Below are positions 3,007 to 47,219 of a stretch of 47,482 bases of DNA, in pieces. Positions within the stretch are counted from its first letter, which is position 1; each line of letters starts with the position of its first letter. A program made the translations under genes and the position numbers. Source of the stretch: Patescibacteria group bacterium (GTDB lineage Bacteria; Patescibacteriota; Patescibacteriia; UBA9629); the NCBI GenBank assembly GCA_038078695.1, contig JBBTVS010000012.1, positions 1-47,482 on the forward strand. The letters are read 5' to 3'. The notes below the pieces were generated by a model. The model was not told the DNA's origin, made no database searches, and saw only the letters and a list, made by a program, of their open reading frames with translations.

Positions 3007-4073
3007 ACTTTATGTTTTAAAATTTTATAATACGCTCTCTCATAATCTTCCGTCATCTTCTCGGCAGTAAAATATTTCTCTACCCTCTCTCGACATTTAT
3101 GTCGGCGAATTTGATCTATATTTTTAATAGCTTTGACAATATCTTTTTGACTTCCGCAAATAAAACCCGTCTCCTGATCAGCCACAACCTCAGGCACTGA
3201 ACCAAAACCATTGGCAATAACAGGAGTGCCGCAAACCATGGCTTCTATTATTACCAATCCAAACGGCTCGTTCCATTTAATGGCATCAATCAAGCCGCGC
3301 GCATTTTTCAATAGTTTAACTTTCTGTAAATGACTTATCTCGCCAATGTATTTAATTTGATCGCCGTCTATCAATGGCCTGACTTTTTTGTTAAAATACT
3401 CCACATCTGCTGGCACAAATTTATCTATTTTGCCGGCCATAATCAATCTGACTCCCGCCTGTTTAGCAGCTAAGATTGATTCTACAGCGCCTTTATCAGA
3501 TGTAAATCGGCCCATCCAGACAAAATAATCTTTAGGTTTGTCGTTAAAATCAAATTTGCTGATATCAATGCCGTTATAAACATTGCCGACCCAATTGATT
3601 TTAAAAGGGGTATTGCGCGCTTGAGAATGACTAATGGAAATCATTGGAGTATTCTGAAAAAGTTTTTTTAAAAACTCAAACCCTGCTCTCTTTCGGCTAT
3701 GAGTTAAATCGCCGTGATAAGTGGAAACAAAAGGCTTGTCTAACAACTTGGCAAAGGCCGCCCCCCACGCGCCGTAATGATTATGAACAAGATCAAAACC
3801 CCCGCGCTGAATCTTAGCAAAGGCATAAGATGCGTGCAATAAAGAAAAATATTTATCGTCCCACGATATGTCAGAGCGATAACCGGCTTTAGCATGAATA
3901 TACTCAAGTTTGGCCGAAGTTTTAGAATCACCGGTAGCAAAAACTGTAACCAAATGACCATTTTTATGCAAACCTTCAGCTAAATTATATACGACCAATT
4001 CAGTGCCCCCGTATTTAATCGGCGGCACTGCCTCCCACGGCGTAGAGAATAAAGCAATCTTTAACTTTCTCAT
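3003..4073 (-). CDS. Glycosyltransferase family 4 (GT-B fold), paralog A
   Basis: N-terminus KIALFSTPWEAVPPIKYGGTELVVYNLAEGL; C-terminal E-x7-E region NEPFGLVIIEAMVCGTPVIA. About 60-65 percent identical by eye to the next gene. Confidence 0.8.
   Translation of the reverse strand: MRKLKIALFSTPWEAVPPIKYGGTELVVYNLAEGLHKNGHLVTVFATGDSKTSAKLEYIHAKAGYRSDISWDDKYFSLLHASYAFAKIQRGGFDLVHNHYGAWGAAFAKLLDKPFVSTYHGDLTHSRKRAGFEFLKKLFQNTPMISISHSQARNTPFKINWVGNVYNGIDISKFDFNDKPKDYFVWMGRFTSDKGAVESILAAKQAGVRLIMAGKIDKFVPADVEYFNKKVRPLIDGDQIKYIGEISHLQKVKLLKNARGLIDAIKWNEPFGLVIIEAMVCGTPVIANGFGSVPEVVADQETGFICGSQKDIVKAIKNIDQIRRHKCRERVEKYFTAEKMTEDYERAYYKILKHKV
3544..3635. repeat. 92-nt near-identical tract shared with 4613-4704 (1 mismatch)
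   Basis: ttaaaatcaaatttgctgatatcaatgcc[g/a]ttataaacattgccgacccaattgattttaaaaggggtattgcgcgcttgagaatgactaat lies in both GT4 paralogs. Flanking DNA is much more diverged. Confidence 0.9.
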
Positions 4074-21682: not shown

Positions 21683-23554
21683 TTACGATAATACACTTTT
21701 TACCTTCTTAATAATAGCATCTTTTGAAATCTCCTCATAGTCCAATAACTCCTGCATCTTGCCGCTTTTCGGCATCTTTCGCACAGCCATTATGTGTACT
21801 GGAATTTGATTATTTGACAACGCCGACGCCGCCGCCTCCCCAAGCCCGCCCTCTGCGAAATGATCTTCTACTGTGATAATGGCTTTGGTTTCTCTTGCCG
21901 CCTGCTTTAAAATTTTTTGATCTATTGGCTTAATGCTGTAGCAGTCAATCACTCTAATAAATATACCCTCTCTCGCTAATTCTTGATATGCGGCGAGCGC
22001 TTCGTGTAAAGTAATGCCAGCGGCAATAATTGTAACTATATCATTTTGACTGCTTTTAACCACACAACTGCCGCCAATTTCAAAATTATCTTCTTGACTA
22101 TAAAGCACAGAAGTCTCTGCTCTGGTTGTGCGAATATAAACAATGCCTTGATATTTAGCCGCCTCTTGTACCAACTTCTCGCAGGACACGGCATCGCTGG
22201 GATACAAAACCGCGCCATTTAAAATGGTCCGAAACATAGCAATATCTTCCAAGCCCATCTGGGAGGCGCCGTCCGCGCCGATTGAAACTCCTGCATGAGA
22301 GCCGACAAACTTGATATTGCTGTCAGAATATTGGCTCATGCGGATTTGATCAAAAGCTCGCGTAAAAAAAGCGGCAAAACTGGAAACATACGGAATCTTG
22401 CCCAGCTTTGACAGACCCTGCGCCATTCCAACCATATTCTGCTCCGCAATAAAACACTCAATAAACCGACCCGGGTAATGCTTTTTGAATACTTCTGCAA
22501 AAGTTGAATTCCCAACCTCCGCGTCAAGCGCCACTATATTTGGATATTTTGGAAAAATCTTGACTAATGCATTGCCATAGGCTTGCCGTGTAGCCACTAA
22601 TTGACCTTTTACATATTCCGCGAATTTGACATTTGCCTGCCCGCCGCATTGGAGGGGCATTTGACATTGATTTGACATTTGATATTTGATATTTGATATT
22701 GGCTTCTTAAATTTTCTTCGCACCTCCTTATCAACCTCCCCCATCTCCTTTAGCGCTTCTGACAATTGTTCTTGATTCAGCGCTTTCCCATGCCAGCCAT
22801 CTTTATTTTCCATAATTTTAACGCCCTTGCCTTTTACGGTCTTGGCAATAATCATCACTGGTTTATTTTTGACTACAAGAGCTTTTTGATAGGCTTTGAT
22901 GATTTTTGACAAATTATGTCCGTCGTCAATCAAAAAAACTTCCCATCCAAAGGCAGAAACTCGCTTTTGATATTCTTCTACCTTGTATCCAAGCATTGTC
23001 TCGCCCCGTTGACCTAAACGATTTACATCAATAATACCTATAAGATTATTTAATTTATAATATGACGCTAATTGCATCGCCTCCCAATTTGAGCCTTCAA
23101 CCATTTCGCTATCGCCCAATAATACATAAGTGCGATAAGGCAGTTTGTCAAGTTTGCCGTTTATAGCCATACCGGCGCCGATTGACAAACCTTGTCCTAA
23201 AGATCCGGTAGCGGCTTCGGCATAAGGAAACTTTAAACTAGGATGACCCTCTAAGCGGCTATTGAATTGACGCAAAGTCATCAATTCTTCTTCGCTGATT
23301 TGACCGGCAACGGCCCATAAACCGTAAAATAAAGGCGCGGCATGGCCTTTGGAAAAAATCAGCCGATCATTATTATGATAATCAGGATTGTCAGCGTCAA
23401 AACAAAAAAATCCGCCAAAGATTAAAGCAGCCATCAATTCCACGGCTGACAAAGAGGATGACGGATGGCCGGAACCGGCGGCAGTTGTGGAGGTCAAAAT
23501 ATAATAGCGGATCAGCTTGGCTAATCTTTCTAATTGTGAGATGTTTGCGGGCAT
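21683..23554 (-). CDS. tkt: Transketolase, N-terminal and C-terminal halves joined by a repeat-encoded linker
   Basis: N-half: AGSGHPSSSLSAVELMAALF, GSLGQGLSIGAGMA, LLGDSEMVEGSNWEA. C-half: ATRQAYGNAL, FIECFIAEQNMVGMAQG, GSHAGVSIGADGASQMGLEDIAM. The linker is PISNIKYQMSNQCQMPLQCGGQANVKF. Confidence 0.9.
   Translation of the reverse strand: MPANISQLERLAKLIRYYILTSTTAAGSGHPSSSLSAVELMAALIFGGFFCFDADNPDYHNNDRLIFSKGHAAPLFYGLWAVAGQISEEELMTLRQFNSRLEGHPSLKFPYAEAATGSLGQGLSIGAGMAINGKLDKLPYRTYVLLGDSEMVEGSNWEAMQLASYYKLNNLIGIIDVNRLGQRGETMLGYKVEEYQKRVSAFGWEVFLIDDGHNLSKIIKAYQKALVVKNKPVMIIAKTVKGKGVKIMENKDGWHGKALNQEQLSEALKEMGEVDKEVRRKFKKPISNIKYQMSNQCQMPLQCGGQANVKFAEYVKGQLVATRQAYGNALVKIFPKYPNIVALDAEVGNSTFAEVFKKHYPGRFIECFIAEQNMVGMAQGLSKLGKIPYVSSFAAFFTRAFDQIRMSQYSDSNIKFVGSHAGVSIGADGASQMGLEDIAMFRTILNGAVLYPSDAVSCEKLVQEAAKYQGIVYIRTTRAETSVLYSQEDNFEIGGSCVVKSSQNDIVTIIAAGITLHEALAAYQELAREGIFIRVIDCYSIKPIDQKILKQAARETKAIITVEDHFAEGGLGEAAASALSNNQIPVHIMAVRKMPKSGKMQELLDYEEISKDAIIKKVKSVLS
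22623..22700 (-). repeat. TTTGACA-type repeat element copy translated in frame inside tkt (78 nt = 26 codons)
   Basis: Contains the exact 21-mer aaatgtcaaatcaatgtcaaa (reverse complement of 22660-22680), also found at 24142-24162 and 31758-31778. Also carries a GC-rich core tgcccgccgcattggaggggca. Confidence 0.85.
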
Positions 23555-23737: not shown

Positions 23738-24136
23738 CTACTTCATTTCTCTCAACTTCTTTTTAGAATCTCTTAAAAAATAAAGTTTAGCCCGGCGAAT
23801 TTTAAAAACTTTATCAATGACAATCCTGTCAACCAGCGGACTATGGACTGGAAAAATTTTCTCAACACCAACGCCATCGCTGTCTTTGCGAACAGTAATG
23901 CTGGCGCCTGGTTCATTTCCATGCTTGCGGGCTAGAACCATGCCCTTAAAAATCTGAATTCGCTCTTTTATTTCTCCTTTAGGCGTAGTATCAACAACTT
24001 TTTCGTGAACGCTAACTATCATGCCGGCGCGCACTTTGTCGCGATCGTCTTTTTGAGTCTGTCTTTTTTTATCTTGTTTATCCTCTTGTTTTTGACTGTC
24101 TTGTTTTTTATCCACAAATAAAATTTCAAATGTCAA
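23738..24136 (-). CDS. rplS: 50S ribosomal protein L19 with Lys/Gln/Asp-rich N-terminal extension
   Basis: RAGMIVSVHEKVV...ERIQIFKGMVLARKHGNEPGASITVRK...GVGVEKIFPVHSPLVDRIVI...RRAKLYFLRD. The exact start is uncertain: TTG 24136 lies inside the repeat element, and GTG 24115 is an alternative. Confidence 0.85.
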   Translation of the reverse strand: MTFEILFVDKKQDSQKQEDKQDKKRQTQKDDRDKVRAGMIVSVHEKVVDTTPKGEIKERIQIFKGMVLARKHGNEPGASITVRKDSDGVGVEKIFPVHSPLVDRIVIDKVFKIRRAKLYFLRDSKKKLREMK

Positions 24137-24245
24137 AATCTAAATGTCAAATCAATGTCAAAATCTAAATATTTCCGCCGAATCGGCGGATTGGCATTTG
24201 TCATTTGGATTTGATTTGGCATTCGACATTTGTCATTTGGATTTA
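24121..24245. repeat. Composite TTTGACA-type element: inverted heptamer-array arms around GC hairpin TCCGCCG-aat-CGGCGGA (24174-24190)
   Basis: The left arm 24127-24162 matches 31743-31778 at 35 of 36 nt. The right arm catttgtcatttggatttgatttggcattcgacatttgtcatttggattt is an imperfect inverted copy. Overlaps the gmk stop and the putative rplS start. Confidence 0.85.
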
Positions 24246-31734: not shown

Positions 31735-31861
31735 TGAAATATCAAATGTCAAAATCCAAATGTCAAATCAATGTCAAATGTCAAATAATCAATATAACTA
31801 AAACTTTTTGACATTTGAAATTTGGATTTGATTTGAAATTTGACATTTGAAATTTGACATT
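31735..31861. repeat. Composite TTTGACA-type element: inverted heptamer-array arms (31743-31790 and 31806-31860)
   Basis: Left arm caaatgtcaaaatccaaatgtcaaatcaatgtcaaatgtcaaat. Right arm ttgacatttgaaatttggatttgatttgaaatttgacatttgaaatttgacat. Shares the 21-mer core with 24142-24162 and 22660-22680. Confidence 0.85.
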
Positions 31862-32845
31862 ATGAATACGATTCTCTCCGGCATGCGCCCGACAGGCAGT
31901 CTGCACATTGGCAACTATTTGGGCGCTTTAAAAAATTGGGTTGATTTGCAGAACTTGGGGCATTACAGATGCTTTTTTATGATTGCTGATCTGCACGCTA
32001 TGAGCGAAAAATTTGACGCTAAAAAATTGTCCAATCGCATCAAAAATTTAATTCTTGATTATTTAGCCTGCGGACTTGATCCAAATAAATCAACTACTTT
32101 TATCCAATCGCATATTCAGGAACATACGTATTTAAGCTGGATTTTTGCGACATTGACGCCGATTGCAGAACTTCAGCGCATGCATCAATTTAAAGAAAAA
32201 AAAAGCCAATACGACCAAATTAACGCAGGCCTTTTTACTTATCCAATTTTGATGGCCGCGGATATTTTAATCTATAAATCTGACACTGTGCCGGTAGGCG
32301 AGGACCAAACGCAGCATGTGGAAATAACCAGAGACATAGCCCGCAAATTTAACAATTGCTTCGGCGACACTTTTCCAGAGCCTAAAGTACTTCTGACGCC
32401 CACTCCGCGAGTAATGAGTTTAACCGAACCAACCGCTAAAATGAGCAAAAGCAAAGGCGAGAAAAATTATATTGCTTTGTCTGACGATGAGATTACGGTA
32501 CGCAAAAAAATAATGTCAGCGGTTACTGATGTCGGCGATAGCGGCGAAATGAGCCATGGAGTTGCAAACCTTTTTACTTTGCTTGATATTTTTGCTTCGG
32601 ATCGCAAAATTTATGATAATCTTAAAGCGGCGTATAATAGTCAAAATTTAAAATACCAAGAACTGAAAGAAATATTGGCGCAAGAAATTACTAAAATCTT
32701 AAAGCCAATTCAAGAAAAACGCGCAGAATTAGAAAAAAAGCCGGATCAAGTAGGCGAAATTTTATTTGAAGGGACAAAAAAAGCCCGCGCCATAGCGCAG
32801 GCGACTTTAGAAGAGGTGCGGGAGAGGACAGGGCTACTTATTTAA
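31862..32845 (+). CDS. trpS: Tryptophan--tRNA ligase
   Basis: SGMRPTGSLHIGNYLG (HIGH-type), VGEDQTQH and KMSKS. Start set to ATG 31862; the ORF-track TTG 31847 lies in the repeat. Confidence 0.95.
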   Translation: MNTILSGMRPTGSLHIGNYLGALKNWVDLQNLGHYRCFFMIADLHAMSEKFDAKKLSNRIKNLILDYLACGLDPNKSTTFIQSHIQEHTYLSWIFATLTPIAELQRMHQFKEKKSQYDQINAGLFTYPILMAADILIYKSDTVPVGEDQTQHVEITRDIARKFNNCFGDTFPEPKVLLTPTPRVMSLTEPTAKMSKSKGEKNYIALSDDEITVRKKIMSAVTDVGDSGEMSHGVANLFTLLDIFASDRKIYDNLKAAYNSQNLKYQELKEILAQEITKILKPIQEKRAELEKKPDQVGEILFEGTKKARAIAQATLEEVRERTGLLI

Positions 32846-40272: not shown

Positions 40273-41240
40273 TTAAATCTTGCCATAATTTTAAAATTTT
40301 TGAACTCCGATTCCATCTGCGCTAAGGTCAAAAGTCCATTCCACGCTCCAATCTGCTTAATGCAGGAGCCGGCGTTTAATGCGCCCCAGAGCAGACAGTC
40401 TGTTAATTTTTTATTATTGATATAGCCGGCCGCAAAGCCGCTGGAAAAAGCATCGCCCGCGCCAGTTACCTCTTTCGGATTCTCTTTTAATCCGCGCGCA
40501 GAAGCTATCTCTTTAGTTTCTTGATTTTTAGCCCAAGCGCCGGCTTTACCATCGGTTATTACAGTTATTTTAGGTCCTAATTTAAGCAAAATATTAAGCA
40601 AGAAAATATAATTGCGGCTTGGCGCGACATTCAACAACATTTCCGCTTCTTGCTTGTTTAAAATTAAAATTTCAGTTTTGCGCAACACCGGCAAAAGAGC
40701 CCTTGCGCCGAGTTTAAGCTCGCGCTCTCCTGGATTAAAGATAATTTTAGGCCCGGCCGGCAATTGCTTAGCCGTTAATTTATAATATTGGCCCAAAGAA
40801 GCTAAATAGATCCATTTAGTTTTTGGCCATTTTATTTTTTTAAAATTTTTAGGCTGATGATAAGATAGTATTACGCGGTCATTTTTATCTTTGCGCCAAT
40901 CTAGAATGTAAGACAAATTAACAGCGGATTGTTCATCAAAATTGCAATATTTTACGGATATTTTTTCTGCTTTAAGATGATTGATTATTTCGCGAGAGCG
41001 ACTGTCAAAACCAAAAGAAGTTATAATTGCGGTTTTTAATTTTAGACGGCTAAAACCAACAGCAGCGTTTGCGGCGTTTCCTCCAATATGCTGTTCTAAA
41101 TTTTGAATCGGTACTTTGCCGCCAACCGGAAAGCAGTAAAAATTTTCTTTTCTCTTTTTGTCTTTGTGATAACAAATATCAACTGCTTCTAAAAAAGTAT
41201 CAATAGTAGCTGTGCCGACGGTTGTGATGTCGTAAGTCAT
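40269..41240 (-). CDS. PfkB-family carbohydrate/nucleoside kinase
   Basis: GGNAANAAVGFSRLKL and the C-terminal anion-hole motif VTGAGDAFSSGF; 323 aa ribokinase-like layout. Confidence 0.8.
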   Translation of the reverse strand: MTYDITTVGTATIDTFLEAVDICYHKDKKRKENFYCFPVGGKVPIQNLEQHIGGNAANAAVGFSRLKLKTAIITSFGFDSRSREIINHLKAEKISVKYCNFDEQSAVNLSYILDWRKDKNDRVILSYHQPKNFKKIKWPKTKWIYLASLGQYYKLTAKQLPAGPKIIFNPGERELKLGARALLPVLRKTEILILNKQEAEMLLNVAPSRNYIFLLNILLKLGPKITVITDGKAGAWAKNQETKEIASARGLKENPKEVTGAGDAFSSGFAAGYINNKKLTDCLLWGALNAGSCIKQIGAWNGLLTLAQMESEFKNFKIMARFN

Positions 41241-41273
41241 AATTCATAAATCATAATTCATAAATTTGACATT
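41241..41273. repeat. Heptamer-periodic array (aattcat aaatcat aattcat aaatttg acatt)
   Basis: Fills the DJ-1 to pfkB spacer. Confidence 0.8.
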
Positions 41274-41816: not shown

Positions 41817-43484
41817 CTAAATATTTTTAATCATATAACCCCATTTTTCCTCCAGCTTATATCCTAATTTTCTATAATATTCTCTTACTCCAACCCCTGA
41901 TATCACTGTGAGTTTATCATAACCGGCAGATTTGGCAATTTTTTCAGCATGATGCAAAAGCCTTTTGCCTAAGCCGCGGTGTTGCGCGAATTTGGAATTT
42001 AAAATTTGGAATTTAGAATTTAGCGGAGCAGGCGAACCATATGTATGAAGTTCGCGAATTAAGGCAGCATGACGCAAAATTGGCAGTTGACTTTTAAGAT
42101 CTCCTGACAGAAATCGCAGGCGCGTAAAAGCATATAAAATTTGTCGATCTGCACTCTCAAAAGAGATAAAATATTCTATGCCGCCCGACGCGTTATATTT
42201 ATCTATAAATAATTTTGCATTTTGCATTTTCATTTTAAATTTTGCATTTTGAATTTTGAATTGATTGCCTACTTCTCTGCACCTGATGCATGTACAAGTA
42301 TAATTCATCTGCGCCTGCACCATCTCTCTAATATTTATGTGCTTGCATCCTTCAACAATATCGCAAGATGGCACATCGCGATAAATCCGTTCAATGCGCA
42401 CATAAGGCGGCACAAATTTTTTCATCTGCGCCAAAAGGCCAATCAATGTTTTATCATTGTAAGTTTTATATTTGCCCTGCTTCCACCGGCGATAAAGCGG
42501 CGTATTTTTTAAAACCACGCAAGGGTATATCTTTAATTGATCAGGCCGCAAATTTGGATCGTCAAACAGCTCTTTAAATGTTTGCAAATCCAGTTTAGCA
42601 GTTGAACCAGGCAAATTAGGCATAATATGATAGCAAATTTTAAAACCAGCATCTTTAAGCAATTTAGTTGCGCGCAGTACATCATTTTTAGTTTGATCCC
42701 GTTTGATCAAATCAAGCACTTTTTGATCCAAATGCTGGATCCCTAACTCAACTTTTGTCACCCCAAACTTTCGTAGCTGCTTTATTTCTTCTAAAGTAAT
42801 ATAATCTGGTCTTGTTTCTATTGATAGACCAACGCAGCGATGTTGAGCGGTTTCATTGTTTCTTTGTAATTCTGTTAACCTCTGACCCACTGCTTTTATT
42901 TGGGATTTAGGATTTGGGATTTGATTAGAAATTAAAAATTGGAAATTAGAAATTGAAAAATTATTTAACCCTCTATACAATTCCCTAATAAACCAACTTT
43001 GATACTTGCGCGGATACGCGCTCCAAGTTCCTCCTAAAATTCGCAGTTCAACCTTCTCCAATTTATGGCCGTTATTATAAAAGGCTTGCATGCGCCCCTG
43101 TACCTGTCTAAAAGGACTATATTTAAAACGCAAAGCGCGCGCAGCCGCCGGCTGGGAAGGCAAATAGCTTTTTGGCATTAAGGCATTGCTTGGACAGTAG
43201 ATACAGCGGCCCGGACAAGGATAAGGTTTAGCGGCTACTGCGACCGGCGCGACGCCTGACAAAGTTCGCACACGGCGCTTAATCAATAAATCCTCCAACC
43301 GCGGCTCAACTTTAATTTTATTAACAGCTAAACATTCGCGATAAATTTTCAACAGCCAATTATTGTTTACAATCCCGATATTAAAATCCCGCGCAAGCTG
43401 ACGTTTGGCGCGGGAAAGTTGTTCTGCTGTGGTTATGTGTTGGCTAGTTATTGATTGGATGATCTTAATTGATTTGTCGTTCAT
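41817..43484 (-). CDS. elp3: Elp3-like radical SAM + GNAT acetyltransferase (tRNA U34 cm5-modification enzyme homolog)
   Basis: rSAM motif KPYPCPGRCIYCP, CVGLSIETRPDYIT, VTKVELGIQ, CIRCREVG, and GNAT motif QHRGLGKRLLHHAEKIA. Three repeat-encoded low-complexity loops. Confidence 0.8.
   Translation of the reverse strand: MNDKSIKIIQSITSQHITTAEQLSRAKRQLARDFNIGIVNNNWLLKIYRECLAVNKIKVEPRLEDLLIKRRVRTLSGVAPVAVAAKPYPCPGRCIYCPSNALMPKSYLPSQPAAARALRFKYSPFRQVQGRMQAFYNNGHKLEKVELRILGGTWSAYPRKYQSWFIRELYRGLNNFSISNFQFLISNQIPNPKSQIKAVGQRLTELQRNNETAQHRCVGLSIETRPDYITLEEIKQLRKFGVTKVELGIQHLDQKVLDLIKRDQTKNDVLRATKLLKDAGFKICYHIMPNLPGSTAKLDLQTFKELFDDPNLRPDQLKIYPCVVLKNTPLYRRWKQGKYKTYNDKTLIGLLAQMKKFVPPYVRIERIYRDVPSCDIVEGCKHINIREMVQAQMNYTCTCIRCREVGNQFKIQNAKFKMKMQNAKLFIDKYNASGGIEYFISFESADRQILYAFTRLRFLSGDLKSQLPILRHAALIRELHTYGSPAPLNSKFQILNSKFAQHRGLGKRLLHHAEKIAKSAGYDKLTVISGVGVREYYRKLGYKLEEKWGYMIKNI
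41988..42023. repeat. Heptamer array translated inside elp3 (protein PLNSKFQILNSKFA)
   Basis: gaatttg gaattta aaatttg gaattta gaatttag. Confidence 0.8.
42211..42264. repeat. Heptamer array translated inside elp3 (protein NQFKIQNAKFKMKMQNAKLF)
   Basis: aattttgcattttgcattttcattttaaattttgcattttgaattttgaattga. Its reverse complement shares caaaattcaaaatgcaaaatt with the rpoC-upstream spacer 47166-47219. Confidence 0.85.
42899..42965. repeat. Heptamer array translated inside elp3 (protein NNFSISNFQFLISNQIPNPKSQIK)
   Basis: Coding sense: aattttt caatttc taatttc caatttt taatttc taatcaa atcccaa atcctaa atcccaa. Gives a 7-aa protein periodicity FSISNFQ/FLISNQI/PNPKSQI. Confidence 0.85.
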
Positions 43485-47165: not shown

Positions 47166-47219
47166 AAATTTAAAATTCAAAATGCAAAATTCAAAATGCA
47201 AAATTCAAAATTTAAAATT
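47166..47219. repeat. Heptamer array (aaaattc aaaatgc)n immediately upstream of rpoC
   Basis: aaatttaaaattcaaaatgcaaaattcaaaatgcaaaattcaaaatttaaaatt. Confidence 0.9.

Follow-up and report, generated by a model that had tools for sequence, protein, structure and literature searches.

In-frame heptamer arrays in three loops of a patescibacterial Elp3 and their counterparts across the genome

How does repeat DNA of the kind that fills spacers come to lie, in frame, within the gene of a conserved tRNA-modifying enzyme? The question is raised by a contig of 47,482 nt from a Patescibacteria group bacterium, in which the gene for Elp3 contains three A/T-rich segments built from 7-nt units. This stretch, called the window in the following, is the entire contig C12 of the assembly G000 (812 kb, 126 contigs, 38% GC, 88% complete), whose nearest named relative is a Candidatus Jacksonbacteria metagenome-assembled genome (MAG). 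G000 is a Jacksonbacteria-like genome of the Candidate Phyla Radiation (CPR), 0.81 Mb in size and with a coding fraction of 92%. In our view the three Elp3 segments are probably whole or partial translated copies of single arms of a genome-wide heptamer repeat family, which reached the gene by seeding or exchange and have since undergone turnover in place.

Three heptamer arrays in the Elp3 gene

Tandem arrays of period 7 were called with Tandem Repeats Finder (TRF), which recovered all three of the segments that an earlier note on this DNA had pointed out within the Elp3 open reading frame (ORF). The features concerned are the following.

41817..43484, minus strand: Elp3, the tRNA U34 cm5U enzyme (radical SAM + GNAT), 555 aa, assigned by Pfam, PDB sequence matches and an AlphaFold2 model
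42898..42965, minus strand: segment 1, residues 174-197, NNFSISNFQFLISNQIPNPKSQIK, a composite arm in a surface loop of the radical-SAM domain
42211..42264, minus strand: segment 2, residues 407-426, NQFKIQNAKFKMKMQNAKLF, (AAAATKC)x7 with one unit of 6 nt, in the central linker
41988..42023, minus strand: segment 3, residues 487-500, PLNSKFQILNSKFA, (AAATTCY)x5, in the acetyl-CoA blocking loop
47166..47219, no strand assigned: non-coding array, from the same unit family as the Elp3 arrays, with AAATTCA/AAATGCA units (TRF AAATTCA x7.7), within the 61-nt spacer that precedes rpoC

The host ORF is a bona fide Elp3. It carries the Pfam domains Radical_SAM, Radical_SAM_C and GNAT (PF04055, E 1e-15; PF16199, E 1.5e-21), and phmmer matched it to the Elp3 proteins of Methanocaldococcus infernus (6ia8, E 4e-114) and Dehalococcoides mccartyi (5l7j, E 4e-111). 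In an alignment of 20 CPR orthologs, the Fe-S cysteines C90, C94 and C97 (a Cx3Cx2C-type motif), the linker zinc cysteines C397, C399 and C402, and the catalytic pair and acetyl-CoA motif QHxGxG (E478, H480, Q501, H502, G504 and G506) are invariant. The AlphaFold2 model built on these orthologs has a mean predicted local distance difference test (pLDDT) score of 87, and Foldseek comparison with 6ia8, 5l7j and 5l7l gave target-normalised template modelling (TM) scores of 0.90-0.92, in line with the presence of the two-domain fold.

On the coding strand, segment 1 reads (AATTTCY)x4, then an irregular junction, AATCAAATCC, and then (AAATCCY)x3; TRF reports it as ATTTGGG x3.7 (42898-42923) and ATTAGAA x5.6 (42924-42963). 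Segment 2 was called as ATTTTGC x7.4 with 86% matches (42211-42262) and segment 3 as GAATTTA x5.1 with 82% matches (41988-42023). The array peptides quoted in the earlier note are right, and so is its remark that a 7-nt period in the DNA gives a 7-aa period in the protein. Likewise, the 21-nt string that it had noticed in both the middle segment and the spacer upstream of rpoC is an exact match: CAAAATTCAAAATGCAAAATT stands at 42238-42258 (minus strand) and at 47185-47205 (plus strand), whereas 0 of 100 dinucleotide shuffles contained such a match. That all three arrays would be translated is suggested by the intact reading frames running through them.

All three segments sit in permissive loops, as we conclude from the pLDDT minima of the model, from length variation among the orthologs and from the replaceability of the blocking loop; structure-guided and ortholog comparison agree with the proposed placement in variable loops between conserved Elp3 blocks. 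Only residues 187-197, 409-416 and 484-501 of the model have a pLDDT below 50, each range lying within one array or largely overlapping it. The length of the segment 1 loop ranges from ~0 to 30 residues among the 20 orthologs. Segment 2 directly follows the zinc cysteines C397/C399/C402, a region described as a partially disordered central linker (Lin et al., PMC6367351). Segment 3 is found between catalytic E478/H480 and the QHRGLG motif, where G483-G506 of the window protein aligns to chain residues 450-470 of the M. infernus protein (MinElp3). These correspond to residues 466-486, the acetyl-CoA blocking loop of PMC6367351, if 16 is added to the chain index of 6ia8 to obtain the residue number, an offset derived from the cysteine numbering in that paper. 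Replacement of the blocking loop by GSGSG did not significantly change the affinity for acetyl-CoA, and tRNA-induced hydrolysis by MinElp3 was still robust (PMC6367351).

In length, segment 1 adds 16 aa relative to the family members G001, G002 and G003, which are array-less at this site, and is a clean insertion, segment 2 adds ~8 aa relative to the class, and segment 3 adds 4 aa relative to G001-G003; the loops of the latter two are present in all Elp3s. The suggestion that such arrays make low-complexity insertions thus applies to segment 1, whereas segments 2 and 3 occupy loops found in every Elp3. The segments themselves did not turn out to be universal structural elements, nor do the sister genomes carry unrelated sequence of equal length without periodicity at these sites. 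It had also been proposed that a multiple of 21 nt is what coding DNA tolerates. This rule does not hold: compared with the relatives, the three segments lengthen the gene by a net 48, ~24 and 12 nt, so that divisibility by 3, not by 21, is what the frame demands. Nor are the arrays as such, at 36, 52-54 and 66-68 nt, divisible by 21, and irregular units of 5, 6, 8 and 11 nt within the arrays restore the frame.

Coding and non-coding arrays across the genome

Arrays of this kind are abundant in G000. TRF returned 315 period-7 rows for the genome, against 16 after block shuffling and 35 in a Markov simulation. Merging of the rows with a score >= 40 gave 213 arrays, among them 51 intergenic ones, 55 straddling ORF ends and 107 inside ORFs, which bears out the claim that coding DNA holds arrays like those of the spacers; the observation made in Elp3 is real and statistically overwhelming. 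The in-ORF arrays are spread over 72 of 876 ORFs (~8%), a set of greedy and hence crude longest-ORF calls. About 12 hosts were checked by Pfam or PDB. According to Pfam they include IleRS, ValRS, PheT, MurC, an aspartokinase and a glycosyltransferase; in the further hosts CarA, GlmS and AroA, solved homologs have gaps opposite most of the arrays, and one array of CarA aligns in place. The heaviest-loaded host seen is IleRS, split over two contig ends (C123:1-1908 and C64:1-1308), with at least eight translated arrays, six of them in the C-terminal fragment.

The arrays found in coding DNA are a filtered set. Their density is 0.14 per kb in ORFs vs 0.8-1.6 per kb in non-coding DNA. Units that bear a stop on each of the two strands are under-represented in ORFs (odds ratio 2.85, p = 7e-4); for example, the unit AAATTAG occurs in no coding array but in 11 non-coding ones. 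Of the 107 coding arrays, 93 have their A-rich, stop-poor strand in sense orientation. No such preference is seen for codon phase: landmarks in the cores of AAATGTC-family arms fall in each of the three phases (3/5/5 and 4/1/3), and are read antisense once. Reading in three phases agrees with the expectation that a 7-nt repeat, which passes through every frame within 21 nt, yields the same heptad in each of them.

The arrays also have an anatomy beyond that of a plain repeat. Arms consist of 3-4 heptamers, an irregular core and again 2-4 heptamers, in total ~50-57 nt, and the irregular cores (AAATCAAATCC, AAATCAATGTC, ATTGATTA and AAAACCACAAC) recur at fixed positions. One arm of 54-55 nt is found 100% identical on three contigs. 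A partner elsewhere in the genome, at >= 90% identity over >= 40 nt, exists for 40 of the 107 coding arrays, and 34 of these partners are non-coding. The Elp3 segments have such counterparts as well: segment 2 is 92% identical over 52 nt to a coding copy at C116:11660-11711 and 87% identical over 63 nt to the rpoC spacer, while segment 1 matches C23:18183-18227 at 93% identity over 45 nt and, irregular junction included, an intergenic copy (C47:2943-2983) at 97.6% over 41 nt. The only difference between segment 1 and the latter copy, a T to C change, turns a would-be in-frame TAA into CAA. Judged from these sequence comparisons, the arrays are arms or arm pieces of a dispersed family with higher-order structure and not plain microsatellites. 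The earlier idea that arrays expand or insert in coding DNA holds insofar as both occur, but the arrays are not free microsatellites.

In spacers, arms also occur in pairs. Of the intergenic arrays, 29 of 106 stand in inverted pairs 3-70 nt apart, whereas coding arrays are solo in 100 of 107 cases, which we ascribe to the TGA or TAA carried by the reverse arm. Three further features of the window illustrate the solo and the paired form.

22658..22700, minus strand: in-ORF array PISNIKYQMSNQCQM, called by TRF inside a 624-aa ORF (21683..23554)
31737..31866, no strand assigned: two-armed intergenic form in which 20 nt separate an A-rich arm (31737-31786) from an inverted one (31807-31866)
24121..24244, no strand assigned: two-armed intergenic element with a central GC hairpin, TCCGCCGAATCGGCGGA; nearly the same hairpin is found in segment 3 of the Elp3 ortholog P0002

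The second arm of the form at 31737..31866 recurs on contigs C4 and C79, where arms match it at 100% identity over 54-55 nt. A third arrangement was found on contig C3 of G000, where inverted arms (627-679 and 1053-1105) surround a PF05635 gene (C3:710-1009; 85.6 bits; L021). The genome G002 has a comparable element (L056:1447-1877), with TAGTTTG and CTACAAA arms around a PF05635 gene at 1501-1818. The element on C3 lies between protein ORFs, and no Rfam match was obtained on this contig, so that it is not located in rRNA. PF05635 genes are present in 31 of the 41 genomes of the class that we compared, in up to 13 copies. Their tie to mobility is architectural only, and the association of gene and arrays is not strict.

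Among the same 41 genomes, the pattern AAATGTC x3 gave 41, 28, 10, 6, 5, 2 and 2 hits in seven genomes, one hit in an eighth and none in the other 33. The highest numbers belong to G000 (41) and G003 (28), but G002, a congener of G003, has only 2; the reversed pattern, used as control, gave 0 hits everywhere. The spread of unit families among genomes is thus patchy and burst-like.

Turnover in relatives and competing explanations

The closest ortholog of the window Elp3, P0002, is encoded on a syntenic JGI metagenome contig (L050) and shares 83% aa identity. The DNA alignment of the two genes contains 36 gap columns in three indels, all of them inside the three arrays; as array sequence accounts for 9.5% of the gene, the probability that all three would fall there by chance is ~9e-4. 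Identity is 84% outside the arrays, 59% in segment 2, where the array of P0002 has other units, and 87% in segment 1. The last value, set beside the matches of segment 1 within G000, hints that this segment may be nearer to paralogous arms of its own genome than to its own ortholog. Length polymorphism of sister genomes exactly at the array sites, one of the expectations of the earlier note, was thus found. For further relatives, the loops were checked at the DNA level with the following result.

G003: segment 1, none; segment 2, AAATGTC x4.9
G002: segment 1, weak AATTCAA x3.6; segment 2, AAATTTC x4.6 with 100% matches
P0005: segment 1, AATTTCA x9.3; segment 2, AAACTCA x3.9
P0008: segment 1, AACTCAA x4.6; segment 2, TAATTAC x4.6
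P0010: segment 1, TTCCAAA x9; segment 2, AATTACT x4.4
G007, from another family of the class: segment 1, perfect TTACGAA x4.4; segment 2, none

Across relatives, at least five other heptamer units therefore occupy the same Elp3 loops, and all eight array-bearing orthologs examined are in frame. The segment 2 arrays of G002 and G003 differ by one base in every unit. Since mixed AAATGTC/AAATTTC arms exist, either pure array can arise by homogenisation. The array of an ortholog may follow the dominant unit family of its genome; this holds for G003 but not clearly for G002.

In G000 the family exists as solo arms of ~30-65 nt, as two inverted arms with a short centre between them and, once, as inverted arms flanking a gene of PF05635, a four-helix-bundle family of the type known from 23S rRNA intervening sequences (IVS). 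According to our proposal, copies of arms would spread, be converted or be exchanged between loci, a step that we infer from the dispersal signature, that is, shared cores, identical arms and coding/non-coding partners. A copy within a gene would survive only if its strand and units are free of in-frame stops, its net length is a multiple of 3, supplied by irregular units, and the site is a structurally permissive loop; Elp3 would offer exactly three such loops. With 7 being coprime to 3, a stop-free arm should give the same 7-residue repeat in any codon phase and be tolerable in one orientation. A resident array would then outpace its host gene through slippage, homogenisation and replacement from other copies, resulting in lineage-specific units and lengths. 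In-place slippage and homogenisation are invoked because of the perfect arrays, the one-base unit difference between G002 and G003 and the confinement of indels to the arrays. The Lys/Asn/Gln/Ser/Ile/Phe-rich array peptides would most likely be neutral, disordered passengers.

Several observations weigh against the part that this proposal assigns to moving copies. Short, decayed heptamer-like remnants are present in the "array-less" relatives, in G001-G003 at segment 1 and also at the segment 2 site, and arrays in the same loops across lineages could reflect long residence and in-place turnover instead of repeated insertion. Convergence of low-complexity sequence can cause pairwise identities to overstate common descent in part. 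In the 88%-complete G000 assembly we found neither a Y1 transposase (PF01797) nor a reverse transcriptase (PF00078), no target-site duplication was seen, and a profile search revealed no PF05635 gene in the array-rich G003.

The strongest competitor consists in pure in-place microsatellites, which would have arisen by slippage of local A/T-rich seeds, such as the AAT-GAA-TTT codons of a conserved N-E-F or the AAA-TTA-TTT codons of K-L-F, and would never have moved; their likeness would stem from convergence on slippage-prone, stop-free heptamers. Array edges do adjoin A/T-rich conserved codons, the arrays with 100% matches in G002, G007 and P0005 speak for recent slippage, the arrays in the loops of segments 1 and 2 persist orthologously within the family, with decayed remnants in "empty" relatives, and G000 lacks a transposase. 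Slippage, however, makes neither inverted pairs nor gene-flanking pairs, and it leaves unexplained that irregular non-heptamer cores stand at the same position in dispersed copies, that three contigs share an arm of 54-55 nt at 100% identity, that segment 1 matches its intergenic copy through the irregular junction, and that unit families are distributed among genomes in a patchy, burst-like fashion. We therefore regard an exclusively local origin as unlikely.

Still somewhat less likely is a selected function of the arrays, be it as Lys-rich amphipathic loops for tRNA or partners, in retuning of the blocking loop, as sites for nucleoid or regulatory proteins, or as RNA processing signals. Elp3, IleRS, ValRS and PheT are tRNA-binding hosts, but GlmS, AroA, CarA, MurC, the aspartokinase and the glycosyltransferase are unrelated ones. 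For the loop that holds segment 3, a coupling of acetyl-CoA access to the binding of tRNA has been proposed (PMC6367351), although the same study found this loop to be dispensable in vitro. Segment 1 has been kept between G000 and P0002 at the level of the rest of the gene (87% vs 84%), some intergenic copies are situated directly upstream of start codons, and NeuO activity is reportedly raised by heptad repeat length (PMC13001214). On the other hand, units and lengths per loop vary between close relatives, the loops are predicted to be disordered, and coding DNA carries arrays at a 6-11-fold lower density than spacers do, which points to purifying selection against them.

Phase-variation (contingency) switches of the neuO type, in which the frame changes whenever a single 7-nt unit is added or removed, are very improbable here: heptanucleotide coding repeats do act in this way in neuO (PMC13001214) and the arrays are slippage-prone in principle, but their hosts are essential housekeeping genes, some with 3-6 arrays, the arrays are short as well as imperfect and their irregular units dampen slippage, and no array-bearing Elp3 ortholog examined was out of frame. 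An assembly or binning artefact can practically be dismissed, as a single sequencing read would span any of the arrays, even in a MAG fragmented into 126 contigs, and as they preserve the reading frame of a conserved enzyme and recur at the same loops in independent JGI, ENA, NCBI and Logan assemblies.

Specific machineries were considered as well. An IS200-type Y1 transposase of the RAYT (REP-associated tyrosine transposase) kind as mobiliser was rejected for want of PF01797 in G000. A retro-mechanism of the diversity-generating retroelement (DGR)/Avd type, to which an Avd-like PF05635 protein might belong, was rejected as well, since PF00078 is missing and the units do not vary at adenines specifically. 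Explanations by ribosomal bypass or by excision of the arrays from the RNA were also discarded: no array contains a stop and each continues the frame of its homologous flanks, a state that neither mechanism would call for.

Beyond the copying of arms and their turnover in place, one may ask whether the heptamer unit itself is an adaptation of a selfish element to a genome that is 92% coding, with protein loops as safe landing sites, so that the family continuously generates and remodels, throughout the genome, disordered loops in core CPR enzymes. We offer this as a tentative, rather speculative extension. It would imply an IVS/S23p-like family, possibly complemented by GC-hairpin mini-inserts that target the arrays, and the acetyl-CoA blocking loop of Elp3 would be among the loops so remodelled.

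Relation to known repeats and further observations

The nearest analogy is provided by the Rickettsia palindromic elements (RPEs; Ogata et al. 2000), dispersed repeats in the form of unique-sequence palindromes of 105-146 bp that are translated as a whole, in 19 ORFs (PMC2229807). The heptamer arms work like RPEs but are not members of them. As with RPEs, small dispersed repeats of the same family are present in spacers and, in frame, within conserved housekeeping genes of a reduced genome, and the extra peptide is tolerated at surface or permissive positions. Unlike RPEs, the coding copies are not whole palindromes but single arms of 30-65 nt (100 of the 107 coding arrays are solo), and they are made of simple heptamer units that are unrelated to the RPE families. 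They are also read in all three phases, belong to many unit families with rapid turnover in the same loop, and are far denser, with ~72 of 876 ORFs affected and up to six arrays per protein.

A second comparison is with the S23p/PF05635 IVS of 23S rRNA in Coxiella and Leptospira. In Coxiella, copy-variable tandem heptamers (GACAGAT x2-4) are adjacent to the S23p ORF (PMC4990558), and the likeness lies in a small four-helix-bundle ORF enclosed by inverted terminal arms. The G000 element at C3:627-1105 differs in being located between protein genes and not in rRNA, and in having long heptamer arrays as arms. In addition, G000 holds ~200 gene-less arrays, half of them translated, and the Elp3 segments belong to these gene-less arms.

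The neuO gene of E. coli K1 contains a coding repeat, (AAGACTC)n, which forms a long perfect 5' array and serves as an on/off switch in an accessory gene (PMC13001214). Both repeats have a 7-nt unit translated as a heptad peptide, with the frame kept only at multiples of three units; unlike neuO, G000 has many short imperfect arrays with frame-restoring irregular units in essential enzymes, and off-phase alleles were not seen among the orthologs. The tandem repeats of Borgs, finally, are of local origin and encode disordered regions, and every unit within an ORF is divisible by three (PMC9879509). They resemble the arrays described here in being A-enriched and fast-evolving, in occurring in both intergenic DNA and ORFs and in adding disordered peptide, but the unit of the coding arrays examined in G000, including all three of Elp3, is 7 nt, and these form dispersed families with inverted-arm variants. 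In the literature on heptamer or translated repeats of CPR/Patescibacteria, we found no prior description of translated heptamer arrays.

The arrays would thus represent a second and much denser system, besides RPEs, for selfish or slippage-prone DNA becoming protein. Its unusual trait is a repeat unit not divisible by three that is translated in every codon phase. Of the ORFs in a minimal CPR genome, ~8%, including those of aminoacyl-tRNA synthetases and Elp3, bear peptide loops from spacer-type repeat DNA. Alignments, domain boundaries and structure predictions of CPR proteins will consequently show lineage-specific low-complexity inserts that are repeat-derived and not functional motifs. 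The array sites mark loops that are experimentally permissive, and for Elp3 they provide a natural test of loop tolerance that extends to the acetyl-CoA blocking loop.

Besides heptamers, P0002 contains a different type of short sequence. Each of its three Elp3 arrays is broken by a GC-rich palindrome that is absent from the window gene (L050:2065-2082, 2778-2795 and ~3019-3037). The palindrome CCCTGCAAGCTTGCAGGG is present in segments 1 and 2, where it is read in two codon phases, and TCCGCCGAATGGGCGGA in segment 3; the latter is 1 nt different from the hairpin at window 24174-24190, which stands between inverted arms. G000 itself has 32 CCGCC-loop-GGCGG hairpins, several of them within heptamer units and some inside ORFs. 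Such palindromes are either a second mini-element targeting heptamer arrays or the original centre of the element, deleted in G000. In G001, just downstream of Elp3, we observed inverted arrays of 9-nt units (L002:2669-2710 and 2759-2787; AATTATTCT / TTAGAATAA) where the window has 7-nt arrays, and arm-type elements of other unit lengths may thus exist. The solo arms of the segment 1 type at C47:2943-2983 and C23:18183-18227 end 0-6 nt before the ATG of a downstream gene with the A-rich strand in sense orientation; a role of some intergenic copies in a 5' untranslated region or promoter is possible.

The gene order rpoC, Elp3, DJ-1/PfpI, PfkB is common to the window and L050. In the window, rpoC and Elp3, which share a strand, overlap at 43465-43484, the start codon of Elp3 falling 20 nt within the 3' end of rpoC, compared with an overlap of 4 nt in L050. 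The 39-nt gap between the PfkB-like kinase gene and the DJ-1/PfpI gene is filled by a TAATTCA/TAAATCA x4.4 array (41233-41265), and the matching spacer of the relative contains TTATGAC x3 (L050:3849-3869).

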